Notes: generated by a model from the sequence alone, not told the origin. A stretch of DNA of 64,000 nt from Steroidobacteraceae bacterium (GCA_035631515.1 DASQIP010000066.1:738-64737); one strand, 5' to 3'. Positions 38,710 to 63,571 are shown, counted from the stretch's first letter. Numbers and translations are program-made.

Positions 38710-39621
38710 ATGGATGGAGCACTGGCGCAGGAGCGGGTCCGCGAGCACTGGGACCGCCAGCCTTGTGATTCGGAGCTGAGCAGGCGCGAGCCCACCTCGC
38801 GCGACTTCTATCTCGACATCGAGCGGCAGCGCTACGCACTGCAGCCGCACATCCTCGAGTGCCACGGCTGGATCGACTGGCGCGGCAAACAGGTGCTCGA
38901 GGTCGGAGCCGGCATCGGCACCGATGCCCGGCGCCTGATCGGCGCGGGCGCACGCTACACCGGCATCAACGTCGACCGCGGCTCGGCCGAGGCCACGGCG
39001 CGGGCGCTGCGCCTGTTCGCGCTCCCGGGAGTCTCCCTGCAGCGCGACGCGCGCGCGCTCGACTTCTCCGACGGGGTCTTCGACGTGGTCTATTCCTTCG
39101 GCGTGCTGCAGCACATACCCGAGGCCGCCCGTGCGGTGGCGGAGATCGAGCGCGTGCTCACCCCCGGCGGTGAGCTGCTGGTCATGCTCTACAACCGCTC
39201 CTCGATCAACTACGCGCTCGAGATCATGGTCCTGCGCCGGCTCGGAGTACGGCTGCTCGCGATTCCGGGGATGATCGGCGTGCTGGCGCGTCTCGGCCTG
39301 CCGCGCGCGACGCTCGAGCGCCACCGCGAGATCCATCGCCAGCGCGGCAACATGTCGCGCGAAGAGTGGCTCAGCCGCAATACCAACGGCCCCGACTACC
39401 CCTGGTGCCGGGTGTACGGCGCGCGCGAGGCCGAAGAGCTGCTGTCGGGATTCGAGATCCTGCGCCACGAGGTGCGCTTCTTCGACCATCGTCACTGGGG
39501 CGTACTCGGGCGGCTGCTGCCGCCGTGGCTGCGCCGCACGCTCGGGCGGCGGTGGGGCTGGCACCGGATCCTGCACGTGCGCAAGCCCGTGCACCCGCCG
39601 GCGGCGGAGACGCGCTCATGA
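38710..39621 (+). CDS. class I SAM-dependent methyltransferase
   Basis: Motif I VLEVGAGIGTD, and the post-I/II pattern FDVVYSFGVLQHIP...LTPGGELLV. Confidence 0.8.
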   Translation: MDGALAQERVREHWDRQPCDSELSRREPTSRDFYLDIERQRYALQPHILECHGWIDWRGKQVLEVGAGIGTDARRLIGAGARYTGINVDRGSAEATARALRLFALPGVSLQRDARALDFSDGVFDVVYSFGVLQHIPEAARAVAEIERVLTPGGELLVMLYNRSSINYALEIMVLRRLGVRLLAIPGMIGVLARLGLPRATLERHREIHRQRGNMSREEWLSRNTNGPDYPWCRVYGAREAEELLSGFEILRHEVRFFDHRHWGVLGRLLPPWLRRTLGRRWGWHRILHVRKPVHPPAAETRS

Positions 39622-40931
39622 GGATCAGCGTACTCGGCCTCGGCTATGTCGGGGCGGTCGTTGCCGGGTGTCTGGCACGCCGCGGACACGAGGTGGTCGG
39701 CGTCGACACCGACGCCGGCAAGGTGGCGCTCCTCAAGGCGGGCCGCGCGCCGATCATCGAGCCCGAAATCGGCGAGATCACCGCGCGCGAAGTGGCCGCC
39801 GGCCGGTTGTCGGCGACCGTGGACGTCGCCGCCGCGATACCGCGCTCGGATCTCATCATGATCTGCGTCGGTACGCCGAGCCGCAGCAACGGCGGGATCG
39901 ATCTCAGCCACGTGCAGCGCGTCTGCCAGCAGATCGGCGCCGCGTTGCCCGCGCATGCGGGCGCTCCGGTCATCGTCGTGCGCAGTACGCTGCTGCCCGG
40001 GACGGCCCGCGACCTCGTGATTCCCACGCTCGAGGCGAGCTCCGGACGGCAGGCCGGCGTCGATTTCGGCGTGTGCATCAATCCCGAGTTCCTGCGTGAG
40101 GGCAGCGCGGTCCACGACTACCTCAATCCGCCGAAGACGGTGATCGGCGAGCTCAACCGGGCGAGCGGCGACCTGCTCGCGAGCCTCTATACCGACCTCG
40201 ACGCTCCGCTCATCCGCACCGACATCGAGACGGCGGAGATGGTCAAGTATGCGGACAACGCCTGGCACGCCTTGAAGGTCGGCTTCGCCAACGAGATCGG
40301 CCACTTCTGCAAGTCCCTCGGTGTCGACAGCCACCGGGTCATGGAAATCTTCTGCCGCGACACCAAGCTCAACCTCTCGGCCTGCTACCTGAAGCCCGGC
40401 TTCGCGTTCGGCGGCTCGTGCCTGCCGAAGGACCTCAAGGCGCTGCTGCACCGCGCGAGGTCGCTCGACGTCTCGCTGCCGATCCTGTCCTCGGTGTTGC
40501 CGAGCAACGAGCTGCAGATCGAGCGTGCCGTACAGACGGTGATCGAGCATGGCAGCCGCAAGGTCGGCATCCTCGGCCTCTCCTTCAAGGCCGGCTCCGA
40601 CGATCTGCGCAACAGCCCGGTGGTCGAGCTGGCCGAAAGGCTGCTCGGCAAGGGATTCGAGCTGCGCATCTTCGACGCCAACGTCAGGCTGGCGAGCATC
40701 CACGGCACCAACCGCGAATACATCATGCACCGCATTCCGCACATCTCTGCGCTGCTCGCCGCCAGCATCGAGGAGGTACTCGAGCACGCCGGCACCCTCG
40801 TGATCGGCAACGCGGCGCCCGAGTTCCAGGCCATCCTGCCACGGGTCGGATTCCGCCAGACCGTGGTCGACCTGGTGCGCATCGGCGAGTGTCACAGCGT
40901 GGCGGGTGTCTACGAAGGGGTGTGCTGGTGA
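39618..40931 (+). CDS. algD: GDP-mannose 6-dehydrogenase (AlgD-like; UDP-glucose/GDP-mannose dehydrogenase family)
   Basis: MRISVLGLGYVGAVVAGCLA NAD motif, catalytic GFAFGGSCLPKD, LGLSFKAGSDDLRNSP and a terminal ...YEGVCW. Colinear with my memory of P. aeruginosa AlgD (MRISIFGLGYVGAV...GFAFGGSCLPKD...AEGICW). ATGA overlap with the upstream stop. Confidence 0.75.
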   Translation: MRISVLGLGYVGAVVAGCLARRGHEVVGVDTDAGKVALLKAGRAPIIEPEIGEITAREVAAGRLSATVDVAAAIPRSDLIMICVGTPSRSNGGIDLSHVQRVCQQIGAALPAHAGAPVIVVRSTLLPGTARDLVIPTLEASSGRQAGVDFGVCINPEFLREGSAVHDYLNPPKTVIGELNRASGDLLASLYTDLDAPLIRTDIETAEMVKYADNAWHALKVGFANEIGHFCKSLGVDSHRVMEIFCRDTKLNLSACYLKPGFAFGGSCLPKDLKALLHRARSLDVSLPILSSVLPSNELQIERAVQTVIEHGSRKVGILGLSFKAGSDDLRNSPVVELAERLLGKGFELRIFDANVRLASIHGTNREYIMHRIPHISALLAASIEEVLEHAGTLVIGNAAPEFQAILPRVGFRQTVVDLVRIGECHSVAGVYEGVCW

Positions 40932-42169
40932 GGCGTGTTCTGATACTCGTCGAGAACCTGCCGAGCCCCTTCGACCGGCGCGTGTGGCAGGAGGCGTGCA
41001 CGCTGCGCGGCGCCGGCTACCAGGTGTCGATCATCTGCCCCACCGGACCGGGCTGCGAGCGCCGTTTCGAGATCATCGACGGCGTGCACATCTACCGCTA
41101 TCGGCTGCCGTTCGAGGCCGCCAATGCCCGTGGTTACCTCCTCGAGTACCTCGTCGCCGTCACCAGAACGTTCACGCTCGCGTGGCGCGTACTGCTCACG
41201 CGCGGTTTCGACGTGGTGCACGCCTGCAACCCCCCGGATCTGCTGTTTCTGGTCGGCGGCTTCTTCAAGCTGCTCGGCAAGAAGTTCCTGTTCGATCACC
41301 ACGACCTGTGCCCCGAGCTCTACCAGGCCAAGTTCGGGCGGCGCGACTTCTTCTACCGCCTGCTGCTGGCACTCGAGCGGGCGACCTTTCGTGCCGCCGA
41401 TGTCTCGATAGCCACCAACGACTCGTACCGGGAGATCGCGATCACGCGCGGCGGTATGCCGCCCGAGCGGGTGTTCGTCGTGCGCAGCGGGCCGAGTCTC
41501 GCGCGCATGCAGCGCCTGCCGCCGGACGTGCGGCTGAAGCGCGGACGGCGCTACCTGGTCGGCTACGTCGGCGTGATTGGCCAGCAGGAAGGAATCGACT
41601 CGCTGCTGCGCTCCGTGCGGCACCTCGTGTTCGGGATCGGGCGGCGCGACATCCACTTTGCGCTGGTCGGCTCCGGTCCGTCGCTCGAGCGCATGCAGGC
41701 CCTGGCCGTGGAGCTGCGGGTGGCCGCGTTCGTCACCTTCACCGGCCGCGTGCCGGACCACGAGCTGCTCACGGTTCTCAACACCGCCGAAGTGTGCGTC
41801 AACCCCGACACGGCGAACGACATGAACGACAAGTCGACCATGAACAAGGTGCTCGAATACATGGCGCTCGGCAAGCCGATCGTGCAGTTCGACCTCACCG
41901 AGGGCCGTTGGGCGGCGCAGGACGCCTCGCTCTATGCGCGCCGCCACGACAGCGCGGATTTCGCGGCGAAGATCGTCGAGCTCATCGACGATCCGGAGCG
42001 CCGCGCCGCCATGGGCGCCGCCGGCCGGCGGCGCGTGGAGACGCAGCTCGAGTGGAGCCACCAGGCCCCGAGGCTGCTCGCGGCCTACGAGGCCCTGTGG
42101 CGCCCCGGCGCCGGAGCCGTCTCGGCCGGGGAGCGCAGGCACCTCGGCACCCCTGGATCGCCGCAATGA
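40928..42169 (+). CDS. GT4-family glycosyltransferase
   Basis: VRRVLILVENLPSPFDRRVWQEA N-terminus and a C-terminal NDKSTMNKVLEYMALGKPIVQF region. GTGA overlap with the algD-like stop. Confidence 0.8.
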   Translation: MRRVLILVENLPSPFDRRVWQEACTLRGAGYQVSIICPTGPGCERRFEIIDGVHIYRYRLPFEAANARGYLLEYLVAVTRTFTLAWRVLLTRGFDVVHACNPPDLLFLVGGFFKLLGKKFLFDHHDLCPELYQAKFGRRDFFYRLLLALERATFRAADVSIATNDSYREIAITRGGMPPERVFVVRSGPSLARMQRLPPDVRLKRGRRYLVGYVGVIGQQEGIDSLLRSVRHLVFGIGRRDIHFALVGSGPSLERMQALAVELRVAAFVTFTGRVPDHELLTVLNTAEVCVNPDTANDMNDKSTMNKVLEYMALGKPIVQFDLTEGRWAAQDASLYARRHDSADFAAKIVELIDDPERRAAMGAAGRRRVETQLEWSHQAPRLLAAYEALWRPGAGAVSAGERRHLGTPGSPQ

Positions 42170-42741: not shown

Positions 42742-42922
42742 CGCGCCTTCCGCCCCCGTCCGGCTCCGCCGGCATAGTCCTTAGGAACTATGGCGCAGCT
42801 GCAAGTGCGCGGAGGCTTGGTATTGCAAGCTCGAACCTGAACGTAAGTCCGGCGCGGGCAGATCGGCGGCGCTCCGCGCGCCGGGCGTTCGTTGATCAGG
42901 GTTGCCAACGGCTGGAGCGTTG

Positions 42923-44530
42923 ATGACAGCGCCGAACGTCCTCTTGATCGGGCCGTACGATCCGCACTGCGGAGAGTACACATTCCTCGCTCCCCCGCTC
43001 GGGGTGTGGCGGCTCGCCGGTGTGCTCGAAGCCACGGGCACCACCGTCAAGGTGTTCGATCCGAACTGCTGCGCCGGCCCGGTTCACCGGGCGCTCGAGC
43101 GCGAGCTGCTGCGTTGCCCCTGGCACATCATCGGCGTCTCCACCACCGGCATGACGCTGCGCTTCGATCTGGAGCTCGCCCACCTGGCGCGCCGGCTGGC
43201 CCCGCGTGCGCTGCTGATCGCCGGAGGGATGGAGGCCACCTTCAGGCCCGAGCTCATGTTCCGGCTCGGTCCTTTCGATCGCGTCGTGCTCGGGGAGGGG
43301 GAGCGTCCGCTGCTCGAGATGGTGGCGCGGCTGCGCTCGGCGGCCCCGCTCGGCGGGATCAGCGGGACCGTGGAGCGCCGTGCCGACGGGCAGTGCCTCA
43401 GATTGCCGCAGCGCGCGCTCGGGCGCGAGGAGCTCCGGGACGCCATCTTCAGTACCCCCTACGCGCGCATGCCCTATGGCGCTTACTGGGAGCGGCTCGA
43501 GAAGGCCTATCGGGTCGGCGCCCTGCCCACCAAGGCCGCCCGCGAGGCGCTGCTCGCGGAGATCCGCTCGGTGCGGCTCATCACCCTCAATTACTGTCCG
43601 ATGGGCTGCAGCTTCTGCTCCTCGACGAACTTCCTGCACGAGGCCCAGGGGAGTGTCGCCGGCATCGCGCGCCTCGACGCCGACGAATGTGTGAGCATGC
43701 TCGGGCGCATCGTCGCCGCGCACCCCGGGGTGCGCACGGTGATCTTCCAGGACGACATCTTCGTGTTCACGCAGGATCGGCGCGTGCTGCCGCTGTGCGA
43801 GCGCATCGTCGCGGCCAAGGACAGCGGCGCACTGCCGCGCACGCTGCAGTTCATCAGCACCAATCGCGTCGATGCGATGACGCCCGAGCGGCTGACGGCC
43901 ATGCGCCGCGCCGGCTTTCGCGTGCTCGGCTTCGGGATCGAGAACTTCTCGCGCAATGTGCTCAGGGAATTCAACAAGGCCCGGATCTACGACCACATCG
44001 AGCCCATGCTGAGCGCCGCCTGCGGCCTCGGCATCACGCCGTTTCTGGACCTGATTCTGACCTCGCCGCGCGCGACGCTCGTCGACCTCGCCGAGACCCT
44101 GCGCCAGGCTTACCGCTGGCTGCAGCGCGGCTGCGAGGTGGGACTCTACCCCTACGTCATTCCGTTCTCGGGCGCGCCCATGGCGGCCGATCCGGCGCTC
44201 GCGCCCTTCACGGTCTGCCAGCGCCGCGAGATTGCCGGCACCGCGATTGCGTGGCAGCAGCCGGCCAAGATCCTGCCGATCGACCCGCTGCTGCGCGAGA
44301 CCATTCTGGCGATCGAGAGCGACGTCGAGGCGTTTCTCGCCCAGGCACAGGCGAACGCGGCCCATCTGCCTTCGCGTCTGCGCTCGCTCATCTGGATATC
44401 GTGCTCGCTGCGGCACATGGCCGAGCGGGGCATGCCGATTGCCGACGAGGATGAGGTACGCCGTGAGCTGGCCGCGCGGCTCCCGGCAGCGGGGCCGCAG
44501 CTCCCCGCGATGGGAGTCGCGAGCGCATGA
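42923..44530 (+). CDS. B12-binding-domain radical SAM enzyme
   Basis: N-terminal Rossmann-like cobalamin-binding-type domain (VLLIGPY...IIGVSTTG...LLIAGGMEAT...VVLGEGE) and a radical SAM cluster motif CPMGCSFC (CxxxCxxC) at nt 43595-43618. ATG at 42923; TTG at 42902 is the alternative. Confidence 0.8.
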   Translation: MTAPNVLLIGPYDPHCGEYTFLAPPLGVWRLAGVLEATGTTVKVFDPNCCAGPVHRALERELLRCPWHIIGVSTTGMTLRFDLELAHLARRLAPRALLIAGGMEATFRPELMFRLGPFDRVVLGEGERPLLEMVARLRSAAPLGGISGTVERRADGQCLRLPQRALGREELRDAIFSTPYARMPYGAYWERLEKAYRVGALPTKAAREALLAEIRSVRLITLNYCPMGCSFCSSTNFLHEAQGSVAGIARLDADECVSMLGRIVAAHPGVRTVIFQDDIFVFTQDRRVLPLCERIVAAKDSGALPRTLQFISTNRVDAMTPERLTAMRRAGFRVLGFGIENFSRNVLREFNKARIYDHIEPMLSAACGLGITPFLDLILTSPRATLVDLAETLRQAYRWLQRGCEVGLYPYVIPFSGAPMAADPALAPFTVCQRREIAGTAIAWQQPAKILPIDPLLRETILAIESDVEAFLAQAQANAAHLPSRLRSLIWISCSLRHMAERGMPIADEDEVRRELAARLPAAGPQLPAMGVASA

Positions 44531-45306
44531 GCTCCACCTACTGGGAAGACCGTGCGAGCCGCTTCGCCTCCAGCGGCGCGGGGCTCGGCGCCGTGTGCTC
44601 CTACGGGATGCCGGCGTTCTACAACCGGATGATCGACTGGTGTCAGCGCCTCGCGCTCGCAAGGTGGCTCGGCGTGCGTCCCGGCGCCCGCGTGCTCGAC
44701 GTGGGCTGCGGCGTCGGCCGCTGGAGTTGCCGGCTCGCGGCGCGCGGGGCGAGCGTCACCGGCGTCGACCTGAGTCGCACCATGATCGCGCAGGCGAAGC
44801 GGCGCGCCGCGGAGCAGGGCGTCGGCGCGCGCTGCCGATTCCTCGTACAGAACCTGGCCGCCCTGGAGGTGGAAGGGCAGTTTGATCTGATACTCGGCGT
44901 GACGGTGCTGCAGCACATTCTCGAGCCCGAGGCGCTGCGCTCGGCGGTGCAGCGCCTCGCGGCTCACCTGGCGCCGGACGGCACGCTGATTCTCCTGGAG
45001 GCGGCGCCGGCGCGCGCCGTCACGAGGTGCAATAGTGCGATCTTCGAGGCGCGTCCGCGCCTCGAGTATCGGCGGCTCTTCGCCGCCTGCGGCCTCACGG
45101 TGCAGGCCGTCACCGGAGTCGATCCGGCGCCGTTCAAGTCCTGGTTACTGCCGCTGCTGCCGCGGATGCCGCGCGCACTGCGAATGCCGGCGCTGGCGGT
45201 CATCACGCTGCTCTCGATCCCGATCGACGTGCCGTTCGGCCGGATCGCGCCCGGGCATTCGTGGCATGCCGTATTCGTCCTGAAGCGCGCGGAGGGACGG
45301 CCGTGA
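44527..45306 (+). CDS. class I SAM-dependent methyltransferase
   Basis: Motif I VLDVGCGVGRWS, then VTGVDLS, FDLILGVTVLQHI and DGTLILLE. ATGA overlap with the radical SAM stop. Confidence 0.85.
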   Translation: MSSTYWEDRASRFASSGAGLGAVCSYGMPAFYNRMIDWCQRLALARWLGVRPGARVLDVGCGVGRWSCRLAARGASVTGVDLSRTMIAQAKRRAAEQGVGARCRFLVQNLAALEVEGQFDLILGVTVLQHILEPEALRSAVQRLAAHLAPDGTLILLEAAPARAVTRCNSAIFEARPRLEYRRLFAACGLTVQAVTGVDPAPFKSWLLPLLPRMPRALRMPALAVITLLSIPIDVPFGRIAPGHSWHAVFVLKRAEGRP

Positions 45307-46556
45307 ACGCACAGCAACAGATCTGGTCTGCCGTCATTACCGCCACGGTGCTCGGCGTGGTGGCCGCCGGCAGCTGGTGGTACCACTCGCAGCATCCGGG
45401 CGCCGGCGCCGGTGCTGCGGACGTGACCGTGAGCGTCACCAACCCGGATGACATGGGGGCGGGGTCACTGCGGGAGGCGCTGTTCGTGGCCGCCTCCGCC
45501 AGAAGCCGGACCAGCGTGCTGATCGAGACGAGAAGGATTACGCTGAAGACCGCGCTGCCGCCGCTCATGAACCGCTACGGGCTGCGGCTGATCGCGCAGC
45601 CGGCGGGCGCCGAGATCGACGCGCATGCCCTGGCCGGCGGCGCGGTGCTCGATGTCGTCGGGCCCAACGCCTCGATCGAGGGCGTGGTCGTGCGCCATTG
45701 CCCCGGGGCGGCCGTGCTGCTGCGCGCGGCTCACTTTCACATGCGCGCCAGCCTGGTCGACTCCTGCGACGTCGGCGTCGAGATCGCCGCGAATGCGGCG
45801 GATGTGCTGCTCGAAGACAACCGCTTCGTGAATGACGGGGTCGGAGTGCGCTTCGGCGCCGCCAACCCCAACACGGCGGTGGTGCGTAACACCTTCACGC
45901 ACGCCACGGCGGCCGGGCTGTGGGCGGTGCGCGGGGACTCGGGCACGCCGGGCGAGGACGCCATTCATGTGCGCGACAACCGGTTCACCGACGACCATGC
46001 CGGCGTGGTCGCGGGCAACATACCGATCGTCGTCGAGCACAATGAATTCTCCGGCAACGCTCCGGAAGCCGCGGTGCATCTGATCGGCTCGAGCGGTGTG
46101 GTGCGCAACAACCGCATCGCCGGCCCGGCGCCCCTGGGGATCGTCGCGGAAAACGCCCGCGACGCGCTCATCGAGGGCAACGAGCTGCACGGACTGAGCT
46201 CCTACGCCATCATGCTGCGCAGCTCCGCCGGCGCCGTGGCGCGCGCAAATCGCATCGCGGATTGTGCCTCGGGACTCGCGTTCGTTCTCGGCGACCCGGA
46301 GCATCCCGGCAAGGCGATCGGCAATACCATCGTCGATGCCAGGCTCGACGCGATCGACGTCATCGGCGACTCGCCGATCCTCACGGACAACCAGGTGGTA
46401 CGCCCGCGCGCCCTGGCGCTGCGCGTCACGGACTACGCGCAGCCCGGGGGCCGGAATCTGCGCGCACACCCCTCCCTGCAGGGAAACAACTTCCGCGCCA
46501 ACACGGTCGGCACGATGCCGGTCGAGCCCACGACCGCGGCGGTCGGCCGGCCATGA
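45303..46556 (+). CDS. membrane-anchored right-handed parallel beta-helix repeat protein (NosD/CASH-like)
   Basis: N-terminal TM (IWSAVITATVLGVVAAGSWWY), then at least 8 PbH1-like repeats (NRFVNDGVGVRF, VRNTFTHATAAGLWAV, VRDNRFTDDHAGVVAG, VEHNEFSG, VRNNRIAG, IEGNELHG, ARANRIAD, IGNTIVD). GTGA overlap with the upstream stop. Confidence 0.75.
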   Translation: MNAQQQIWSAVITATVLGVVAAGSWWYHSQHPGAGAGAADVTVSVTNPDDMGAGSLREALFVAASARSRTSVLIETRRITLKTALPPLMNRYGLRLIAQPAGAEIDAHALAGGAVLDVVGPNASIEGVVVRHCPGAAVLLRAAHFHMRASLVDSCDVGVEIAANAADVLLEDNRFVNDGVGVRFGAANPNTAVVRNTFTHATAAGLWAVRGDSGTPGEDAIHVRDNRFTDDHAGVVAGNIPIVVEHNEFSGNAPEAAVHLIGSSGVVRNNRIAGPAPLGIVAENARDALIEGNELHGLSSYAIMLRSSAGAVARANRIADCASGLAFVLGDPEHPGKAIGNTIVDARLDAIDVIGDSPILTDNQVVRPRALALRVTDYAQPGGRNLRAHPSLQGNNFRANTVGTMPVEPTTAAVGRP

Positions 46557-47998
46557 CGGACCGCAACCCGACCCAGATCCTGCCGGTTTACAACTGGCTC
46601 GATCCGCGCGCGCATCCGCTCGGGGATACCTGGCTGCTCACCATCTTCGCGATCCTGCTGGCGATCGGCCTGCCGCGCGTCGTCGGCGGTCTCACGATCG
46701 ACTTCGCGGTTTGTGCGCTCGGCCTGCTGACGCTCGGGGTGATTCACGTCGGCTTCGCCGTCGTCGCCGCACGCCTCGGCACCCGGCCGCAGCTGCGCAC
46801 GCGGCTGCTCACCGCCCTGCATCTGCTCGGCGTCCTGACCGTCGCCTTCATCTGGCAGCGGGCCGGAGGACTGCAGAACCCCGTGCTGCTCGCGGTGTTC
46901 GTGCTGCCGGTCATCGGCGCCGTCTTCATCTCGCGCTGGCAGGCGTATGTCACGGCGGCGCTCGCGGTCTTTGCGGTGATGGCGCTCGCCTCGGGACAGG
47001 CGCCGTCGCTGACGGAACCCCACTGGTTCGTGCCGGGCCTGCGGGCGGCGGCCGGCTGGCTGAGCTCCGCAGCCCGGCTGGCGGGTGACGGCGAGCGGCC
47101 GTTCGCCGCCTTCTATGCGCCCGCGGGCTACTACGCCGCGCTGCTGCAGGTATTCGCGGTCGTGTTGTTCGGCTGCGCGGTGGCCGCGGAGTACGTGCGC
47201 ACGGTCTTCGATCGGCTGAACGCCCAGCTGGCCATGGCCCGCAGCGAGACGTTGCGCAGCCGTGGGCTCTGGTCGGCGCTGGTGGAGGAGCTGCCGCTGC
47301 CGGCGGCGCTCGTCGACACCGACACTCACGAAATTCTCTGCGCGAGCGCCCTCGCCGTCGGCGTCTGGGGCGCAGGCGGGGAGGCCATCAACGGGCGGGG
47401 CTTCTTCGAGGTAGTGCGGTTCTCGTACCCGGAAGCGATCGAGGCGCTGATCGACGGGCGCGACGGAGTCGAGCCGCTCAGCATGGTGCGCATGGGCGGG
47501 CAGCTGCTCGCCACCGAGGTGCGTGTACGGCACGTCGCCCAGGATGGGCGCCGCCTCGCGCTCGTTACCGTCAGCGACACGACCGAGGCCTTCTGCGTAC
47601 GAGCGACCCTGGATGCGGCCGAGCACGCGGCGCTGATCGTCAACGCCTCCGGCCGCGTGCTCGCCCTCAACAGACCCGCCCGCGCGGTGTTTCCCGAGGC
47701 ACAGCCCGGCGCGGAAATCTCCAAACTCGCGCCGGAGGCCGGTGGCGGACTGGCCTGGTGGGACCCGGGAATGAGCCGGCGCAAGAAGATGCATCTGACC
47801 GTGGCGCGGCGCGTCTACCAGGTCACGGCTACCGCGGTCGCGCTGCCCGGCGAGGAGGAACGGCTGTACGTAGTCGCGTTCGCGCCGACGTCGACTTTCG
47901 CGGGCTGGGATCGCAGCGGCACGGTGCGCGCGGCGGCCGTCGCCGGCGGGGATCTCGACACCACCATGCTGACCGCCGTGAGGCGGAGGCGAACGTGA
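46553..47998 (+). CDS. polytopic membrane protein with two PAS-like cytoplasmic domains and no output domain
   Basis: About 6 TMs in the first 250 aa, then two PAS-like blocks (LPLPAALVDTDTHEILCAS..., AEHAALIVNASGRVLALNRPA...). No H-box, GGDEF, EAL or HTH recognised. ATGA overlap with the upstream stop. Confidence 0.65.
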   Translation: MTDRNPTQILPVYNWLDPRAHPLGDTWLLTIFAILLAIGLPRVVGGLTIDFAVCALGLLTLGVIHVGFAVVAARLGTRPQLRTRLLTALHLLGVLTVAFIWQRAGGLQNPVLLAVFVLPVIGAVFISRWQAYVTAALAVFAVMALASGQAPSLTEPHWFVPGLRAAAGWLSSAARLAGDGERPFAAFYAPAGYYAALLQVFAVVLFGCAVAAEYVRTVFDRLNAQLAMARSETLRSRGLWSALVEELPLPAALVDTDTHEILCASALAVGVWGAGGEAINGRGFFEVVRFSYPEAIEALIDGRDGVEPLSMVRMGGQLLATEVRVRHVAQDGRRLALVTVSDTTEAFCVRATLDAAEHAALIVNASGRVLALNRPARAVFPEAQPGAEISKLAPEAGGGLAWWDPGMSRRKKMHLTVARRVYQVTATAVALPGEEERLYVVAFAPTSTFAGWDRSGTVRAAAVAGGDLDTTMLTAVRRRRT

Positions 47999-48825
47999 AG
48001 GCGCGGGCGCCGGCGATCGCTTTGATCCTGCTGGCGTGCGCGCGGCAGGCGGCGGTGGCGGACCAGGCGCAGCTGCCGCCCGCGCCGGCCTCCGCCGGCG
48101 AGGATCGCCTGCTCTTCAGCGCGGACGGTGGCTGGCTCACCGGCGGCAGCGGCGCCGGCGGCGCCTCGGCACTGTGGTCGCACACCTTCGCGCCGCGGGA
48201 CGTGATCAACGTGGGCGCCGAGTACGAGCAGGTTGCCAATTCGCATTGGACGAACGGAATTCTCAGCGGCTCCTTCGGGCTGGGGAGCGGCACATCCGCC
48301 CCGGCGATCTACTTCGACGCTCATGAAGGCGCGGGCGATCTGGCGTCGCGCAGTTTCAGGTACTCGGTGGTCACGGTGGGACTGCTCGATGCGCCGACCC
48401 AATGGCTGACCGTGCAGCTGGAGGAGCGGCGCATCGACGTCGACACGAGCCACGGCAACCTGCCGAAGCTCAGTCTGTCGTTCCGCGTGGCGCAGCCGCT
48501 GCTGCTGTCTGCGTCTTATGCGGATTCCGCGGGCGGCAATCTGGGCACGCAGCTCGCTGCTTTACGCGTCGACTACGTCGGACAGGCGTCTACGGCCCTC
48601 GCCGGAGCGGCCCACGGCCGCGCCGCACCGGCCGTTCTCAACCTGCAGGGTCAGATCGTGCAACCCAGCCCGACGCTGACGGAGGTGTTCGCCGGCGCCG
48701 GGCACTCCTTCGGCCGCGCCGACTGGAAGCTGCTCGCGGACTACCAGGACATCGAGGGCTTCAAACGCACCACCATCACGTTGCTGTGCACGCTGCATCT
48801 CGATGAGCACGGTCGCTCGCCATGA
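47995..48825 (+). CDS. small secreted beta-rich protein, candidate outer-membrane beta-barrel (possibly YaiO-like)
   Basis: GTG start in a GTGA overlap. Signal peptide VKARAPAIALILLACARQAAVA, then an alternating-hydrophobicity strand pattern with G/S/D turns. The family assignment is speculative. Confidence 0.45.
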   Translation: MKARAPAIALILLACARQAAVADQAQLPPAPASAGEDRLLFSADGGWLTGGSGAGGASALWSHTFAPRDVINVGAEYEQVANSHWTNGILSGSFGLGSGTSAPAIYFDAHEGAGDLASRSFRYSVVTVGLLDAPTQWLTVQLEERRIDVDTSHGNLPKLSLSFRVAQPLLLSASYADSAGGNLGTQLAALRVDYVGQASTALAGAAHGRAAPAVLNLQGQIVQPSPTLTEVFAGAGHSFGRADWKLLADYQDIEGFKRTTITLLCTLHLDEHGRSP

Positions 48826-51233
48826 AGCTCGACGCGTACAAGGGCTACCCGTCCTGGATTCCGGCCGCCGCGGTCGGGGCCGTGGTAGTGCTCGCCGGCG
48901 CGCGCCTCATCACCCTGAGCGTGCGCGATCACGCCGCGCAGCTGCACAGCGCCGCTCAGGCCGCAGTCCTGCAACAGACGCAGGCGATCGACGTGCAACT
49001 GCAGGCGCTTCTCGAGCGTGCGCGCAGCGAGGCGCGCCGCGCCGCCGGCGCGGTCGCGGAGGGCGTCCCGTCGCGCGATGCCTTCTGGGTTTCGGGCACC
49101 GGCGTCCTGCTGCGCAGTGCAGACCCCGACCCGGCCGTCAGCCGCGCCCTGGCGAGCGAATGGGCAGCCGCGCAGCACGCCGCGCCCCCGGCAGCGGGAC
49201 TCTTCGGCCCGGTCCGCTACGGCAGCCGGTGGTTCGTGGCGGCGCAGCAGCCGGTCGGTCTGCGGCAGTCAGGCGCGGCGCCGGCCGGCGCGCGCGCATT
49301 TGCCTACGAGGGCCTCGATGGGCTGCTGCTGCGGGCCGGGTTCGCGCGGCTCGCCCGCGAGGGCTACGATTTCGAGCTGCGCGAGCACGAGCCGGGCTCA
49401 GGCGTGCGCCGGGTGTTCCTCAGCTCACGCGCCGGGACGCTCGCGGAGCCGGTGACGGGCGCAATCCATCCGCTGGGCGCTGCATCGACTGGGCAGCCCG
49501 CCTATCTGGAGCTGGCCATCCAGCCCCGCGCTGGCTGGTACCCGATCGGGCCGCTAGCCGCCGACATCGCCGTGCTGGTCCTGCTCGCCTGGGCACTCGC
49601 ATTCGGCGCCTACGATCTTGCTTACAGCGTGCGCCGCACCAGGCGCGCGCTCGCGAACGCCCGCGCGCGCCTGAGCGTCGTCCACGCGCGCCTCACGGCG
49701 GAAATCGAGCAGCACGATGCCCTGCAGAAGAATCTCGAGCACGCCCGCTACCACGACCCCTCCACCGGGTTGCCGAATCGCCGCTACTTCATGAGCCAGG
49801 TCGACCGGGCGCTGCGCGATCTGCACGCGCGGCGGCGGCAGCGCCTCGCGATTGCACTCATCGAGATCGACCGCTTCGCGCTCATCAACGATACGCTCGG
49901 CCACACTGCCGGGGATGATCTGGTGCTGCAGGTCGCGCAGCGCTTCGCCAAGGTGCTCGAGTCGAAAGAGCATACGCTGGCGCGCTGGAGCGGCGATCAG
50001 TGCGCGGCCTTGCTCTACGACGTCGATTCCGCCGAGGTACGCGCCATCGCCGCGGCGCTGCACGGCACGCGTCAGCAGCCGCTCTCACTGCGCAAGCACC
50101 GCGTCAAGGTCGCGACGCGCATCGGGTTCACGTCCATCGCACGCAGCCTGCACCGTCCGGAGGAGGCGCTGCGCGAAGCCGACGTCGCCTTGTCGGTGGC
50201 CAAGGGCGAGTCGGGCCTCGACACGGTCGAGTACACCCCGGACATGGGCGGCGCGGCGGTGAGCCTGGTCAGCCTCGAGGCGGATCTGTACCTGGCGCTC
50301 GAGCGCGGGGAATTCGGCCTGCTGTTCCAGCCCATATTCGAGCTGCGCGGACCGCGGGTAGTGGGCTTCGAGGCGCTGCTGCGCTGGCATCATCCCGTGG
50401 AGGGGACACTGACGCCGGATCGGTTCCTCGCCATCGCGGATGAGGCCGGCGTGACCGTGCCCGTTACGCGCTGGATCGTCCAAAGGGTCTGCAGGCTCAT
50501 CGCCGACTGGCGCGCCAGCCTGCGGCGGGACGCCGATTTCTACATCAGCGTCAATCTCTCGGCGGCGGCCCTGCACGACCCGGGATTGTGCGAGCACGTC
50601 GCCCAGGTGCTGCGCGACACGCACGTCCCGCCGGGTTACCTCAAGTTCGAGCTCGCCGAGCGCGGCCTGGTCGAGAACGTGAGCGCCGCGCGTGCGGTGA
50701 CGGCCGGATTCCACGATCTGGGCGTCGAGCTGATGCTGGATGATTTCGGAACCGGCTATTCATCCCTCAGCTATCTGCAGCTGCTGCCGTTCGACTATGT
50801 GAAGATCGATCGGCCGTTCGCCAACCGGACGGGATCGGAGCGCGCCAACAACGCCATTACCGGCGCCGTATTGCAGATGACCTCGAGCCTCGGGCTGCGC
50901 GCCATCGCCGAGGTAGTGGAAAGCGAGGCGGCGGCACGCGCGCTCGGTGAGCTCGGCTGCAACTTTGCGCAGGGCTACTACTTCTCCGAACCGCTCGAAG
51001 CGGCGGACGCCTTCGAGCTCCTGCGGAGCTCTCCGGGCGTGTCGACGGTGGTTACGCCCGGCCCGGGCGCCGCCGCGCCGCGCACCGCCGGCGCGGGGGA
51101 CCAGACGATGGTGATCGAGGACTCGCCCACGCTGGCACTGCCGGACACGCCCACTCTCGTGCTGCAGGCTCCGATCGATCCCGAGATCGCGGTCACGGAA
51201 GAGCAGGACGCCGGCAAGCGCTCGGGAGGCTGA
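48822..51233 (+). CDS. membrane GGDEF-EAL protein with periplasmic sensor domain (degenerate GGDEF, intact EAL)
   Basis: TM1, a ~220-aa periplasmic region and TM2. The GGDEF domain starts at STGLPNRRYF, but the active-site position reads SGDQC (nt 49989-50003). The EAL domain has EALLRW (nt 50370-50378), NLS, ELAE, DDFGTGYSS and KID. ATGA overlap with the upstream stop. Confidence 0.85.
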   Translation: MKLDAYKGYPSWIPAAAVGAVVVLAGARLITLSVRDHAAQLHSAAQAAVLQQTQAIDVQLQALLERARSEARRAAGAVAEGVPSRDAFWVSGTGVLLRSADPDPAVSRALASEWAAAQHAAPPAAGLFGPVRYGSRWFVAAQQPVGLRQSGAAPAGARAFAYEGLDGLLLRAGFARLAREGYDFELREHEPGSGVRRVFLSSRAGTLAEPVTGAIHPLGAASTGQPAYLELAIQPRAGWYPIGPLAADIAVLVLLAWALAFGAYDLAYSVRRTRRALANARARLSVVHARLTAEIEQHDALQKNLEHARYHDPSTGLPNRRYFMSQVDRALRDLHARRRQRLAIALIEIDRFALINDTLGHTAGDDLVLQVAQRFAKVLESKEHTLARWSGDQCAALLYDVDSAEVRAIAAALHGTRQQPLSLRKHRVKVATRIGFTSIARSLHRPEEALREADVALSVAKGESGLDTVEYTPDMGGAAVSLVSLEADLYLALERGEFGLLFQPIFELRGPRVVGFEALLRWHHPVEGTLTPDRFLAIADEAGVTVPVTRWIVQRVCRLIADWRASLRRDADFYISVNLSAAALHDPGLCEHVAQVLRDTHVPPGYLKFELAERGLVENVSAARAVTAGFHDLGVELMLDDFGTGYSSLSYLQLLPFDYVKIDRPFANRTGSERANNAITGAVLQMTSSLGLRAIAEVVESEAAARALGELGCNFAQGYYFSEPLEAADAFELLRSSPGVSTVVTPGPGAAAPRTAGAGDQTMVIEDSPTLALPDTPTLVLQAPIDPEIAVTEEQDAGKRSGG

Positions 51234-51237: not shown

Positions 51238-52671
51238 ATGAGCGTGAGCGTCAGACGCCCGTGGAACCTGCTGGTGCCCATCGGCGTCTACGCGCTGCTC
51301 GCCGTGTGGATTGCGCTCACCTCGGCCGAGTTCGACGCCGGCAACTTCTCGTTCCTGATCTACGGCGTGGCGAACATCATCGTGTTCACGGACGCGGTGG
51401 ACTTCGGCGTGCGCCTGTACGCGCACCGCCGGCACACCGCGGCTTCGGCGGGCCGGGGCACGGCGGACTGCGGCCTGCTCTCGGTCGATCTGCCGTCTCT
51501 GGGAAGGCCGTTCATCGGCAGAGCGCGCGCCCGTCCTTTCGCGATCGTCGCTTCGATATTCAATCTCGAAGACGGCATCGAGCAATTCATGGCGCGGCTG
51601 GCGCCCTACCGGGAGCACGTCTGGCTCATCAGCGATGGCTCCACCGACCAGACGGTCCAGCGCCTGCACCAGGCGGGTTGGCGCTGCCTGGAGGAGGAGG
51701 TGAATCGCCGCAAGCCGGGCGCGCTGCGGCGGCTGCTGGCGACCCTGCCGGCGCGCATCGAGACCGTCATGGTCATCGACCCGGACGTCAGAATCTGCTC
51801 GCGCCGTGAAGGCAGTGCCGTCGATCTTGAGCGCGTCGTGGCGGACCTGCAGCAGTCCGGCGCGGCGGCGGCGTGCCCGCGCGTCGAGATGGAGCGCGAC
51901 GGGCTGCTCGGGCGATTCCAGGCATTGGAGTACGCGCTGACGTTCGTCGTCGGGCGGCGCAGCATGGCCGACTACGGCGTGACTTCCGGGGTCTCCATTT
52001 ACCGCCGGGACGCGCTCGAGCACGCGCTCGCGCGCCATTCACTGTCGGTCTATGCCGAGGACCTCGAGACCGCGCTCATCCTGCTCAACGACGGCGAGCG
52101 CATCTACTACGACGGCCGCCTGGTGGTGAGCACCGACCGGCCGAACTCGTTTCGCCACTGGTTCTCGCAGCGCGTCGGCTGGTATCACGGACTGCTGCGG
52201 GTCTATACGGAACGCCTCCCCGAGCTGTGGCGGGTCGGCCGGCGCGACCCGTTCGCGATGTACAACTACATCGGCTACCTCGGCGTGCTCGGACTCGGCC
52301 TGCACGCGCTCAAGCTCGTGAGCGCGGCGCTGCTGTCCGTGAGCGTCGCGGCGATCTTCGACAACCTGTTCGTCCTGCACCTGCTGCCCTACGCCGGGAT
52401 GGTCAATCCCGTGTACTTCGTCGGCGCCTCCGTGAGCTATCTCGGGCTCGGCTCGCTCGCGCTGTTCACCGTCGTGCCGCATCGCGACCGCGCCTACATT
52501 GCCCCGATCCTGCCGATCTACTTCATCTACGTACTGCTGCACCTGGTGCCGATCACGCTCGGGTTCGCCAACTGGGTGGCGCTCAAGCTGTGGCACCGCC
52601 GGGTGTTCCGCGATCACTACCAGTCGCACGAGGACGTCCCGAGTCTCTACGGCGCGCTGTATCGGCCATGA
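51238..52671 (+). CDS. membrane-embedded family-2 glycosyltransferase (processive synthase type)
   Basis: Two N-terminal TMs, GT-A domain (ISDGSTDQT, VIDPDV, AEDLE), a Q-R-V-G-W variant of the QxxRW processivity motif (nt 52168-52182), then about 4 C-terminal TMs. Confidence 0.8.
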   Translation: MSVSVRRPWNLLVPIGVYALLAVWIALTSAEFDAGNFSFLIYGVANIIVFTDAVDFGVRLYAHRRHTAASAGRGTADCGLLSVDLPSLGRPFIGRARARPFAIVASIFNLEDGIEQFMARLAPYREHVWLISDGSTDQTVQRLHQAGWRCLEEEVNRRKPGALRRLLATLPARIETVMVIDPDVRICSRREGSAVDLERVVADLQQSGAAAACPRVEMERDGLLGRFQALEYALTFVVGRRSMADYGVTSGVSIYRRDALEHALARHSLSVYAEDLETALILLNDGERIYYDGRLVVSTDRPNSFRHWFSQRVGWYHGLLRVYTERLPELWRVGRRDPFAMYNYIGYLGVLGLGLHALKLVSAALLSVSVAAIFDNLFVLHLLPYAGMVNPVYFVGASVSYLGLGSLALFTVVPHRDRAYIAPILPIYFIYVLLHLVPITLGFANWVALKLWHRRVFRDHYQSHEDVPSLYGALYRP

Positions 52672-53642
52672 TGCTCACGGACTGCCGCGGCTGGCTGCCG
52701 GACGGCAAGCAGGCGGCCGTGTGCTTCAGTATCGACGATGTCCATCCGGCAGGCTCGGCGGATGCGTTCGATGCGGGCGGAGATCTCGGCCGCGGTGCCC
52801 TGGGCCGCGTCGAGCGGCTGCTCGAGCGTCACCCGCGGCTGCGCATCACGATGTTCGTCACGCCCGACTGGCGGCGGGTGGAGCTGGTCAGGACCCGCAA
52901 GTGGTTGACACGCGTTCCGCTGCTGCGTGAGCGCATCCACTGGGCACCCCTCGCGCCCAGAGGGCGTTTTCGCATCGACCGGTTCCCGGACTTCGTCGCC
53001 TACCTGAACGCGCTGCCGCGCACCGATTGCGCCATACATGGCCTGCATCACGCCCACCCGGGGCCGCGGCTCGCCACGGAATTCCAGGGACAGTCGCGCC
53101 GCAGGTGCCGCGCACTGGTGCAGGAGGCCCGGCGGATCTTCGTCGCCGCCGGGCTCAGGCACGTCCCGGGCTTCGCAGCGCCGGCCTGGAATACGCCTCC
53201 CGCGCTCTGTGCGGCCCTCGGCGACGAGGAATTTCGCTTCGTGGCTTCGGCACGTGACCTCGATACCCCGGTGAGCGCCGGGGCGCGCACGGCCGGCCAC
53301 GGGCTGCGCGGCGCCTCGCTCATTCACCCGACCTGGATTGCGGGCGCGCCCGCGCACGAGCCCGCGGCTGCGGCCCGGCGACTGGTGCACTTCACCACGA
53401 ACTTTCAGGCGACTTCGACGCTCGAGCGTGCCCACGCCATCATCGAGGCCGGCGGCCTGCTCTTCATCAAGGCGCACGTCTTCAAGAAGGGTGGCGGGAT
53501 CACCATGCTCGACGGACTCGACGACGACTACTGCGCCTACCTGGAGCGGCTGTGGCGCGAGCTCCATCGCCGCTATGGCGATGCTCTGTGGTGGACCTCG
53601 CTCGATGAGGTAGCGAACCGATGCCGGGCGCTGGCGAACTGA
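52668..53642 (+). CDS. polysaccharide deacetylase-like protein (DUF2334-type)
   Basis: CFSIDDVHP near the N-terminus, TMFVTPDW and HGLHHAH histidine clusters consistent with deacetylase-fold metal sites. No signal peptide. ATGA overlap with the GT2 stop. Confidence 0.55.
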   Translation: MMLTDCRGWLPDGKQAAVCFSIDDVHPAGSADAFDAGGDLGRGALGRVERLLERHPRLRITMFVTPDWRRVELVRTRKWLTRVPLLRERIHWAPLAPRGRFRIDRFPDFVAYLNALPRTDCAIHGLHHAHPGPRLATEFQGQSRRRCRALVQEARRIFVAAGLRHVPGFAAPAWNTPPALCAALGDEEFRFVASARDLDTPVSAGARTAGHGLRGASLIHPTWIAGAPAHEPAAAARRLVHFTTNFQATSTLERAHAIIEAGGLLFIKAHVFKKGGGITMLDGLDDDYCAYLERLWRELHRRYGDALWWTSLDEVANRCRALAN

Positions 53643-54559
53643 GGATTCTCGTCAATCCGGAGGATCGCGAGGCCGAGGTCGGCCCGGCATTTCTGACCCG
53701 GTGTTTCGCCGCCCGCTGGACCGAGGCGATGTACCGCTGGTACCTGCAGCGTCCTTTCGCCGGTGAGCTTCCCGACCGGCTGATATTGACGGAGGGCGGG
53801 CGCGCGGTGGCGGCGTGCGGCGTGGTCTATCGGCAGCTGCGCACCCAGGATGGGGAGGTGCATCGGGTCGGCATCGCACTCGCCGCCGCTACGCTGCCCA
53901 GCGCGCGCGGCCGCGGTTGCTACGCACGCGTGCTGCGGGCGACGGCGGAGCGGAGTGCGGCCCGCGGTTGTGCCGCGCTGCTCGGCTTCGTCACCGCGGA
54001 TAACACCTCGGGGCGGGGGCTCGCGCGCCTCGGGGCCACGGCCATCCCGAGCGCCTACATCGTGTCGCGCGCTCGCTCAGCCGGTCCGCCGGCGGGCCTG
54101 CTGCAGCTGCGGGACGCGCGGGCGGCGGACGACTGGCCGCTGCGCGCTGCGGCGCGCGTGCGCCCACCGGCGGCGCCAGCCGGGTTCCACTACCCCGACG
54201 CGAGTGCCTGGCGCTCGCAGCTGGTGGATCGCCCGGATGGGGTGCAGACACTGCGCATCGGGGCCACGTGCCGTGCCGTGATCGAGCGGGTTGCCGACAC
54301 CGATCGCCTGCAATGGCTCGACGGCGATGGGCGCGAGCGCGTGGCCGCCATCCGTGCCGTCGTGGAGTGCGCACGGCGCCGCGGGCGTAAGTTCTTCATG
54401 TTCTCGACCTGCCCGCACGAGACGGCGGCGGCGCGCCGCCTCGGACTCGCGGCGCATCCCGGATACATGCTGGTCCTGCCGCTGCAACCAGCGTATGCCT
54501 CCGCGGTGCGCGGCTGGGCGGGCATGTCCTGGCGCGTGCAGTCCGGAGACCGGATGTAG
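53621..54559 (+). CDS. GNAT-fold acetyltransferase-like protein
   Basis: 312 aa. Central segment IALAAATLPSARGRGCYARVLRATAERSAARG resembles the GNAT acetyl-CoA-binding Q/R-x-x-G-x-G/A motif. Overlaps the upstream gene by 22 nt. Confidence 0.55.
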   Translation: MPGAGELRILVNPEDREAEVGPAFLTRCFAARWTEAMYRWYLQRPFAGELPDRLILTEGGRAVAACGVVYRQLRTQDGEVHRVGIALAAATLPSARGRGCYARVLRATAERSAARGCAALLGFVTADNTSGRGLARLGATAIPSAYIVSRARSAGPPAGLLQLRDARAADDWPLRAAARVRPPAAPAGFHYPDASAWRSQLVDRPDGVQTLRIGATCRAVIERVADTDRLQWLDGDGRERVAAIRAVVECARRRGRKFFMFSTCPHETAAARRLGLAAHPGYMLVLPLQPAYASAVRGWAGMSWRVQSGDRM

Positions 54560-56213: not shown

Positions 56214-56228
56214 GAGCTGCTCCTCATC

Positions 56229-59135: not shown

Positions 59136-59207
59136 GTGGGCGTGAGGTTATGCGTCGTGCGTTATCTGAAAGCGGGCCCGGCCGTGCGTCCCCATGGACC
59201 CTTCGGC

Positions 59208-60612: not shown

Positions 60613-60625
60613 GGGGCCGCGGCGC

Positions 60626-63285: not shown

Positions 63286-63571
63286 GTTGACCCTCGCTAG
63301 CAGATGAAGGGGTGGGCGAGCCATGCGGGGACGATAGAGACGAGGCCTTAAGGCCGTGTGGGCGCGCCGCCGTGCCGAATGGTCCGTTCGGACCAATCCC
63401 TGCCCCGAAGGACTACCGTGTAGCCGAATGACTACACGGCTGACGGTGAATCGCCACACTCTCATGGTGATCCGACGATGGTGGCCGGATTTCGCAGGCA
63501 CTACGATGTCGGGACTGCTGAGGCGCCCGAACGTGGGGTTGGGGCGTCCCGGTGTGTGCGGGGGAGGCTGG

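Follow-up and report, generated by a model that had tools for sequence, protein, structure and literature searches.

A 64,000-nt stretch of DNA from a Steroidobacteraceae bacterium (hereafter the window, within the whole of which all positions are counted) carries a series of co-directional genes encoding a radical S-adenosylmethionine (SAM) enzyme with a B12-binding domain, a methyltransferase, a right-handed beta-helix protein, a membrane protein with PAS domains (memPAS), a secreted protein, a GGDQF-EAL protein and a membrane-embedded family 2 glycosyltransferase (GT2). We refer to these seven genes as the cassette, and to the radical SAM, GT2 and methyltransferase genes as its core trio. 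GC content of the window is about 70%, and GC content at third codon positions (GC3) of 0.8-0.9 marks real genes across it. Proteins were assigned to families with Pfam and NCBIfam models and their cutoffs; AlphaFold2 models were searched by Foldseek against the PDB. Single-protein sequence searches of the PDB were uninformative for the GT2 and the beta-helix protein, for which profiles were required.

The first gene of the cassette (42923-44530, plus strand) encodes the 535-residue radical SAM enzyme. Its ATG start sits inside a longer open reading frame (ORF) that begins with TTG (42902-44530). Pfam recognizes a B12-binding domain at residues 19-132 (PF02310, E 6e-14), in agreement with the N-terminal cobalamin-binding-type domain proposed in an earlier note on this DNA, and a Radical_SAM domain at residues 220-395 (PF04055, E 5e-10). 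The CX3CX2C motif of the [4Fe-4S]/SAM cluster, read from the sequence as CPMGCSFC (residues 225-232; 43595-43618, plus strand), lies exactly where that note had placed it. Cluster cysteines C225, C229 and C232 are invariant in 30 of 30 homologues, and no SPASM or twitch cysteines are conserved in these 30 sequences. One relative of 51% identity, P0123, is devoid of CX3CX2C and reads LADGPIGIGCACS; judged by its sequence, this protein is possibly a degenerate paralogue or one without catalytic activity. The window enzyme contains a DxHxG-like stretch (D13-P-H-C-G17), the histidine of which is not conserved in distant homologues. His-off cobalamin binding is known for class B radical SAM enzymes, and the variable histidine is compatible with binding of this kind by the predicted cobalamin domain.

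The structural model of the radical SAM enzyme (pLDDT 91, pTM 0.89) is matched best by TsrM, OxsB, TokK, CysS, MgmA and AprD4, with OxsB in second place (E 1e-19 to 1e-15, TM-score 0.55-0.66, identity 14-18%). When a sequence profile was compared with the PDB, OxsB (4e-9), TsrM (2e-6), AprD4 (2e-5) and TokK (3e-4) were found, and the profile aligned to the B12 domains of OxsB, TsrM and TokK. At the level of the predicted model, membership in the cobalamin radical SAM fold class is thereby confirmed, and the class-B-type architecture suggested in the earlier note holds both for domains (Pfam) and for fold (AlphaFold2 with Foldseek). Fold alone is no proof of cobalamin binding, because AprD4 shares the cobalamin radical SAM fold, yet binds no cobalamin. 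Fifteen NCBIfam radical SAM models matched the protein, 11 of them B12-type or AprD4, all with less than one fifth of their cutoff. The best was ApyD (60 bits, cutoff 750); BchE reached 41 of 481, HpnR 35 of 650 and HpnJ 26 of 578 bits.

Adjacent to the radical SAM gene, and overlapping its stop with an ATG (ATGA), is the gene of a 259-residue class I SAM-dependent methyltransferase (44527-45306, plus strand; Methyltransf_25, E 1.5e-23). Among NCBIfam models, CpaM and BchM score best, both under cutoff. The protein passes the Pfam NodS threshold (48.7 bits), but generic methyltransferase models score higher, and the NCBIfam NodS model gives 43 bits against a cutoff of 300. Conserved C-terminal features are a hydrophobic helix and an SWH motif; the helix just precedes the last beta-strand motif (SWH..F.F) and may represent a substrate lid rather than a membrane anchor.

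The third gene (45303-46556, plus strand) encodes a 417-residue beta-helix protein, predicted to be periplasmic and anchored in the inner membrane. The start at 45261 given in the earlier note is that of the longest ORF; the GTG at 45303, which overlaps the methyltransferase stop (GTGA), is the likelier one, because most orthologues are about 417 residues long. Pfam detects Beta_helix (PF13229, E 1e-20) and NosD (PF05048, E 1e-16, 61 bits). Hydropathy shows an N-terminal hydrophobic helix, and in the AlphaFold2 model (pLDDT 86) a transmembrane (TM) helix at residues 3-30 is followed by the beta-helix, so that the membrane-anchored beta-helix protein of the earlier note stands. Foldseek retrieved GH87 glucanase, Sf6 tailspike, RbmB, GH28, AlgE4/6, PL6 lyases and VexL without preference for any class (E 1e-6 to 3e-4; AlgE4/AlgE6 modules 5e-5 to 2e-4). 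Carbohydrate-active beta-helix enzymes account for 10 of the 10 best matches and for nearly all of the top 50. In the profile search of the PDB, only the N-terminal stretch VTSxxDxGPGTLREAL aligned, namely to VexL (E 0.03), and the PL1 vWiDH motif was not seen in the protein. On the predicted structure, this is a generic carbohydrate-active fold and, at fold level only, a candidate for polymer processing. A NosD role was rejected: the NCBIfam NosD_copper_fam model gives 32 bits against a cutoff of 300, NosD is not among the top 50 Foldseek matches, and nos genes are absent from the window and from the loci inspected. The orthologue in the metagenomic contig L093 (L093:4150-5697) is extended at its C-terminus by a further domain of about 100 residues, which the Steroidobacteraceae proteins do not have.

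We found the same close packing in the next three genes, each of which overlaps the stop of its predecessor. The memPAS gene (46553-47998, plus strand; ATGA overlap with the beta-helix gene) encodes about six TM segments by hydropathy and cytoplasmic PAS domains without an output domain; PAS-family matches were obtained for 18 of 23 orthologues. The secreted protein (47995-48825, plus strand; GTG overlapping the memPAS stop) is about 276 residues long and a putative outer-membrane barrel. All its orthologues have a signal-peptide-like N-terminus. The third of these genes (48822-51233, plus strand; ATGA) encodes a membrane GGDEF-EAL protein (EAL E 1e-69, GGDEF E 7e-32) with two TM segments flanking a loop of about 200 residues. 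Across 25 orthologues, the GGDEF motif is degenerate, reading (S/G)GDQF, and EAL, DDFGTGYSS, ELTE and QGY are intact. By its motifs, the protein probably acts as phosphodiesterase or sensor and not as cyclase.

The GT2 (51238-52671, plus strand; 477 residues) is the presumed synthase. Hydropathy indicates two N-terminal and about four C-terminal TM segments, and the motifs DGSTD, DPD, AED and QRVGW are present. Its closest characterized counterpart appears to be PgaC of Escherichia coli (hhalign 92%, E 7e-7; BLASTP 26% identity, E 1e-14), although the NCBIfam PgaC_IcaA model scores only 51 bits against a cutoff of 422. The GT2 profile also matches YaiP (hhalign 79%, E 2e-5) and, in the PDB, hyaluronan synthase 1 (E 0.002), with a weak match to BcsA. 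Instead of the QxxRW of processive GT2s, every cassette GT2 orthologue, those of distant contigs L084-L089 included, carries QR(V/I/M)GW; in the window protein, QRVGW occupies residues 311-315 (about 52168-52182). A PgaC-like paralogue neighbouring the cassette in L088 retains QRLRW.

Searches with the radical SAM protein return more than 1850 relatives, the top 120 of which are all at least 73% identical to it, and for both this protein and the beta-helix protein hundreds of homologues were found at 45-99% identity. GC3 is 0.82-0.89 in the radical SAM, methyltransferase and beta-helix frames. Because of this composition and of the numerous homologues, the three ORFs are not due to chance. A scan of one genome per species, with an alignment of seven sequences as query, yielded 206 radical SAM relatives. 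The best 80 of these 206 come from Steroidobacteraceae, Steroidobacter-related genera or gammaproteobacterial metagenome-assembled genomes, and cultured Steroidobacter and Peristeroidobacter species are among them, for example S. agaridevorans (L034), S. gossypii (L021), S. flavus (L038) and P. soli (L029).

To compare the cassettes, window proteins were searched by tblastn against these loci. All Steroidobacteraceae loci that are long enough carry the cassette, and the GGDQF-EAL gene occurs in every complete one except L056; loci without some of the genes are contigs that end short. The radical SAM gene is the most conserved of the seven, with 69-91% identity to orthologues in 80 Steroidobacteraceae loci. 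In 55 loci the order is radical SAM, GT2, methyltransferase, beta-helix, memPAS, secreted protein and GGDEF/EAL, with GT2 directly after the radical SAM gene. The window belongs to a subclade (radical SAM at least 77% identical) in which GT2 has moved behind the GGDEF-EAL gene, often together with two further genes, DUF2334 and GNAT. Comparison of the window with L014-L083 indicates that this relocation is a clean lineage-specific rearrangement of the operon.

Five stop-start overlaps join the genes from radical SAM through GGDQF-EAL, and a sixth (ATGA) joins GT2 to the DUF2334 gene. The translational coupling reported in the earlier note for the first three genes is part of this chain. The only gap longer than 5 nt in the co-directional series is the 181-nt intergenic region before the radical SAM gene (42742-42922, plus strand), a presumed promoter or leader. 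No sigma-70 consensus match was detected in it, and promoter and terminator scans gave matches no more frequent than in shuffled sequence. An Rfam c-di-GMP riboswitch (c-di-GMP, cyclic di-GMP) was looked for upstream of the radical SAM gene and not found. Flanks of the cassette vary between loci and comprise cytochrome oxidase, isoamylase or an exopolysaccharide island. Since the flanks differ and the dehydrogenase, methyltransferase and heparinase-like genes upstream in the window are found with the cassette only in L005 and L006, the cassette is autonomous. The trio described in the earlier note (radical SAM, methyltransferase, beta-helix) therefore heads an operon as claimed there, but this is a synthase-type cassette of its own and not the Wzx/Wzy cluster upstream.

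The core trio also occurs outside the family. Distant contigs, reached from radical SAM representatives at 30-43% identity, contain the three genes adjacent to each other and orthologous to those of the window, at GC contents of 32-60%. In L084, L085 and L087-L089, identity to the window is 36-42% for radical SAM, 30-37% for GT2 and 33-44% for methyltransferase. The simplest arrangement, radical SAM-GT2-methyltransferase, is that of L084, and L097 has GT2-methyltransferase-radical SAM. An outer-membrane YaiO barrel is encoded in five distant contigs (L085 and L087-L089 by Pfam, L092 by homology). It stands between radical SAM and GT2-methyltransferase in L085, L087, L089 and L092; L088 reads radical SAM-YaiO-methyltransferase-GT2-beta-helix, followed by a memPAS homologue whose GGDEF domain is cut off after its start by the contig end. 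L093 has radical SAM-GT2-methyltransferase-beta-helix-memPAS::GGDEF-secreted protein. Its trio is 36-41% identical to the L085/L088 orthologues and its beta-helix protein 32% identical to that of the window; its memPAS homologue (hhalign E 6e-45) carries, as a fusion, an intact GGDEF domain with canonical RLGGDEF. Among distant cassettes, the window secreted protein is homologous solely to the 274-residue protein of L093 (hhalign 98%, E 8e-15). The c-di-GMP link and the accessory proteins thus recur and are no local accidents. L084 additionally holds two radical SAM paralogues, the first (3402-5120) 63% identical to the window enzyme and the second (7607-9184) 42% identical and followed by GT2 and methyltransferase.

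Judging from these loci, the methyltransferase is an obligate neighbour of both radical SAM enzyme and GT2. Co-inheritance of the radical SAM gene with a PgaC-like GT2 and a methyltransferase across distant taxa bears out the carbohydrate link proposed in the earlier note and makes it stronger than could be seen there. Since the radical SAM gene is the most conserved one and is inherited together with the synthase in very different genomes, functional coupling between them is likely to be real. What appears to be new is a putative synthase-dependent glycan system with an obligate module of B12-type radical SAM enzyme and methyltransferase and with a variant synthase motif. The literature searched contains no description of a radical SAM, GT2 and methyltransferase gene combination and no link of radical SAM enzymes to a synthase-dependent exopolysaccharide system, and searches on Steroidobacter exopolysaccharides and on YaiO/YaiP function returned nothing relevant.

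Gene content, order, coupling, co-inheritance across taxa, folds and motifs are observed at these loci. With modest confidence, we read the cassette as an autonomous operon for a synthase-dependent, c-di-GMP-linked secreted glycan whose sugar would be modified by radical SAM chemistry and methylation. Polymer, chemistry, topology of action and control of activity by c-di-GMP are inferred from co-inheritance, folds and motifs. The GT2 with its QRxGW motif would polymerise a common nucleotide sugar and carry the chain through the inner membrane. On the cytoplasmic face of this membrane, the sugar donor or the growing chain would be modified by radical SAM enzyme and methyltransferase, since radical SAM enzymes need SAM and reductant. 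The most likely chemistry would be radical SAM C-methylation at an unactivated carbon combined with conventional O- or N-methylation. Radical rearrangement or dehydration with subsequent methylation appears almost as plausible, an alternative kept alive by the constant presence of a separate methyltransferase. In the periplasm, the anchored beta-helix protein would trim or process the polymer by analogy with BcsZ, PgaB, AlgL and PelA. The signal-peptide protein would provide the outer-membrane exit, with the YaiO barrel in that role in distant cassettes, and the memPAS protein with its six TM segments would, together with the GGDQF-EAL protein, tie output to c-di-GMP. A bolder proposal is that a new clade of PgaC-like QRxGW synthases has the B12-type radical SAM enzyme as its obligate partner, which installs a radical-derived modification, for instance C-methylation at an unactivated sugar carbon, on a secreted, c-di-GMP-linked exopolysaccharide. 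We put it forward only tentatively and consider it somewhat improbable in this full form.

Several points weigh against these proposals. The canonical arginine of QxxRW is absent from the cassette GT2s and replaced by glycine throughout the clade. The predicted fold of the radical SAM enzyme fits methylases and OxsB-type or AprD4-type enzymes alike and cannot separate them. Known synthase-dependent systems modify their polymer in the periplasm, and we know of no precedent for a cytoplasmic step by a radical SAM enzyme and a methyltransferase. For the secreted protein, matches to barrel families (TonB-barrel or OMP_b-brl) are weak and limited to 6 of 19 members, and its identification as YaiO was rejected after three negative hhalign tests. 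Pfam and NCBIfam models revealed no c-di-GMP receptor of PilZ, PgaD or PelD type, and no Rfam cobalamin riboswitch was found upstream of the radical SAM gene. Moreover, the core cassette has no dedicated nucleotide-sugar genes, so that the substrate cannot be inferred from it. The whole case is built on sequence and predicted structure.

Within the same system, the radical SAM enzyme might not be a methylase at all. The sugar would then undergo a radical rearrangement, contraction of its ring, dehydration or cyclisation, as with OxsB, AprD4, HpnJ or BchE, and the methyltransferase would be the sole source of methyl groups and possibly act first, as BchM acts before BchE. OxsB being the best PDB profile match and second-best fold match, together with the presence among the top matches of AprD4, which acts on a sugar diol, favours this possibility. 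A self-sufficient methylase, moreover, would not need a constant dedicated methyltransferase, and this methyltransferase is closest to CpaM and BchM among NCBIfam models. Relatives fused to sugar cyclases of DHQ-synthase type point in the same direction. On the contrary, most characterised cobalamin radical SAM enzymes are methylases, the methylases TsrM, TokK, CysS and MgmA are equally close by fold, and similarities of 14-18% identity do not discriminate. We regard this version as rather unlikely. Doubtful to a greater degree is a small product: the core trio would make a cytoplasmically tailored, methylated oligosaccharide or glycolipid resembling Nod factors or the products of the hopanoid side-chain enzymes HpnI/J/K, which outer-membrane and beta-helix proteins would release. 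Nod factors are synthesized by the GT2 NodC, the deacetylase NodB and the methyltransferase NodS. The cytoplasm must be where radical SAM enzyme and methyltransferase work, as it is for the Nod tailoring enzymes. The GT2 is of NodC or PgaC size, the methyltransferase exceeds the Pfam NodS threshold, the window subclade adds a deacetylase-like DUF2334 protein without signal peptide and a GNAT protein beside GT2, and with HpnJ there is a B12 radical SAM enzyme that has a GT2 as its working partner. However, orthology with HpnI/J/K and with Nod factor genes was rejected, as the models score far under their cutoffs (see NodS and HpnJ above) and the NCBIfam HpnI model does not match the GT2. Generic models outscore NodS, DUF2334 and GNAT are missing from most cassettes, and the hallmarks of polymer secretion include an outer-membrane barrel, c-di-GMP proteins and a periplasmic protein with the fold of a polysaccharide enzyme.

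The earlier note had seen in the beta-helix protein a possible epimerase, served by an AlgD-like, GDP-mannuronate-forming enzyme 2 kb upstream. Extended to the cassette, this gives an alginate-like system with an AlgG-like C5-epimerase and a C-methyl group added by the radical SAM enzyme. AlgE4/AlgE6 epimerase modules are indeed among the fold matches, an NDP-sugar (NDP, nucleoside diphosphate) dehydrogenase lies 2 kb upstream, and a PF14099 lyase closes the operon. Epimerases depend on an essential histidine and on the catalytic motifs DPHD (AlgG) or YG(F/I)DPH(D/E) (AlgE). When 22 and 25 orthologues of the beta-helix protein were aligned, neither DPHD nor YG(F/I)DPH nor any invariant histidine was present; by fold, epimerases match no better than glucanases, tailspikes and lyases, or less well. 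The nearest NCBIfam equivalogs of the dehydrogenase are the UDP-glucose dehydrogenases AglM and TuaD, all under cutoff, and no AlgD model scored on it. By score, it is a generic NDP-sugar dehydrogenase. It lies within 10 kb of the cassette in only two of the 83 loci, L005 and L006, the two closest to the window, and is therefore a neighbour by adjacency of the island. With GT2 nearest to PgaC and no homologues of Alg44, AlgK, AlgE, AlgX or AlgI/J/F (Pfam, NCBIfam), we consider an alginate-like system very improbable, and both the epimerase and the AlgD-like enzyme are abandoned here. Modification of a peptide or protein, either RiPP-like (RiPP, ribosomally made peptide with post-translational modifications) or of a cassette protein, with the sugar genes as mere neighbours, is scarcely credible. 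The top NCBIfam matches do include the RiPP enzymes ApyD and rSAM_ocin_1, and a PEP-CTERM protein is encoded upstream in L089. These two models nevertheless score below 10% of their cutoffs, SPASM and twitch cysteines are not conserved, and in the gene lists examined no small ORF stands beside the radical SAM gene. The constant partners are GT2 and methyltransferase, and relatives are fused or adjacent to sugar-nucleotide enzymes.

Returning to the synthase-dependent secreted glycan, the cassette appears to work like PgaABCD and other synthase-dependent systems by analogy and is a member of none. With PgaABCD, which makes poly-beta-1,6-GlcNAc in E. coli, it shares the N- and C-terminal TM bundles of the GT2, in which D, DxD, ED and the Q-R-x-x-W region align to PgaC, as well as a candidate periplasmic polymer enzyme, an outer-membrane candidate and a predicted c-di-GMP link. 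It differs by QRxGW in place of QRxRW, by its obligate and presumably cytoplasmic radical SAM enzyme and methyltransferase, and by lack of homologues of PgaD, PgaA (TPR and barrel) and PgaB, the beta-helix protein replacing the deacetylase/hydrolase. For cellulose, poly-N-acetylglucosamine, alginate and Pel, tailoring takes place in the periplasm and consists of acetylation, deacetylation, epimerisation or addition of phosphoethanolamine. From alginate systems with AlgG, AlgE and AlgD, which resemble it in having a periplasmic right-handed beta-helix in a synthase-type operon, the cassette is separated by the missing catalytic motifs and histidine, the missing conserved dehydrogenase partner and the absence of other alginate proteins.

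The remaining comparisons concern single components. Class B radical SAM enzymes (TsrM, TokK, CysS, MgmA/Mmp10, OxsB) share with the window enzyme a Rossmann-type B12 domain, a barrel with CX3CX2C and a C-terminal helical domain; this class also includes the sugar C-methylases GenK and GenD1. In contrast to them, the window enzyme fits no curated subfamily, is 14-18% identical to the listed enzymes and has its gene with that of a polymer synthase, not in a cluster for an antibiotic, a cofactor or a RiPP. VexL (Vi antigen) and RbmB (a lyase of Vibrio VPS) are both among fold matches of the beta-helix protein, whose N-terminal motif aligns to VexL, and share with it a predicted periplasmic location and a gene within a glycan export locus. 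However, E-values are weak (0.03 for sequence, 2e-5 to 2e-4 for fold), the PL1 motif was not seen and a TM anchor is present. The uncharacterised yaiO-yaiX-yaiP-yaiS locus of E. coli (barrel, GT2, deacetylase) resembles distant cassettes, which place a YaiO barrel with a GT2, and the GT2 profile matches YaiP; yet it contains neither a radical SAM nor a methyltransferase gene, and the window secreted protein has no detectable likeness to YaiO. The Nod system (NodC, NodB, NodS) likewise combines a GT2 of PgaC/NodC size with a cytoplasmic SAM methyltransferase, and the subclade adds deacetylase-like and acyltransferase genes. Unlike it, the window cassette has no NodA or NodIJ, its methyltransferase falls short of the NodS model, and radical SAM, beta-helix, outer-membrane candidate and c-di-GMP genes are added.

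Accessory genes of the subclade follow GT2 in the window. The DUF2334-like protein (52668-53642, plus strand), deacetylase-like and without signal peptide, is a weak Pfam match (24.2 bits, cutoff 26); its gene adjoins the cassette only in the window, L005, L009, L010, L012, L013 and L016. It co-occurs with the gene of a GNAT-like acyltransferase (53621-54559, plus strand; weak GNAT matches). The last gene of the co-directional run encodes a secreted PF14099 polysaccharide lyase with an N-terminal hydrophobic segment (54562-55395, plus strand; Polysacc_lyase E 3e-17), which in L005 and L006 is encoded just upstream of the radical SAM gene. Beyond it lies a convergent cluster on the minus strand (55389-63585) with genes for a methyltransferase, a FemAB-like Acetyltransf_6 protein, an uncharacterised protein, a GT4, a GNAT protein, a PP-binding carrier domain (60289-60864) and a luciferase-like monooxygenase (62269-63585). 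By its domains, it looks like an acyl-carrier-dependent set for glycan or lipid tailoring.

Upstream of the cassette, a separate Wzx/Wzy-dependent polysaccharide island spans 22308-42741. It contains Bac_transf (22308-23714, minus strand), a LuxR regulator, Wza (28356), a split Wzc (29214 and 30268), a Wzy/O-antigen-ligase-like protein (31356), a flippase (32456), a GT4 (35217), a heparinase II/III-like protein (36598), a methyltransferase (38710), the NDP-sugar dehydrogenase (about 39618-40931) and a 611-residue protein with a C-terminal GNAT domain (40906). Only L005 and L006 have the 36.6-42.7 kb part in common with the window. At 40001-42000, over the dehydrogenase gene's 3' part and the 611-residue ORF, GC content falls to 66.5%, compared with about 70% in the flanks, and GC3 of this ORF is also lower.

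The wider radical SAM clade comprises 203 clusters at E < 1e-30 and, as gene context and domain fusions indicate, is sugar-linked. In L086 (9288-13369), a relative of 32% identity is encoded between a WbqC gene and genes for an MbnB/TglH-like protein and a second radical SAM-SPASM protein, within a NeuB/CMP-sugar/WbqC/DegT capsule cluster, a setting that suggests radical modification of a nonulosonic acid. Giant proteins P0145, P0182, P0184 and P0195 (2000-6600 residues) contain a related radical SAM domain together with WbqC, UDPGP, DUF4922, PHP, NAD-epimerase, ROK kinase, DHQ synthase and PRTase domains. These fusions may be of eukaryotic or viral source.

If the bolder proposal is true, the cassette would represent an unrecognised class of synthase-dependent glycan system, present in several lineages and near-universal in the soil family Steroidobacteraceae. 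Since cultured carriers exist, the hypothesis is testable. If the coupling of radical SAM enzyme and synthase is confirmed, radical chemistry would join the repertoire of polysaccharide tailoring, the many B12-type radical SAM proteins of this orphan clade would gain a function, and a matrix polymer of Steroidobacteraceae would be described.

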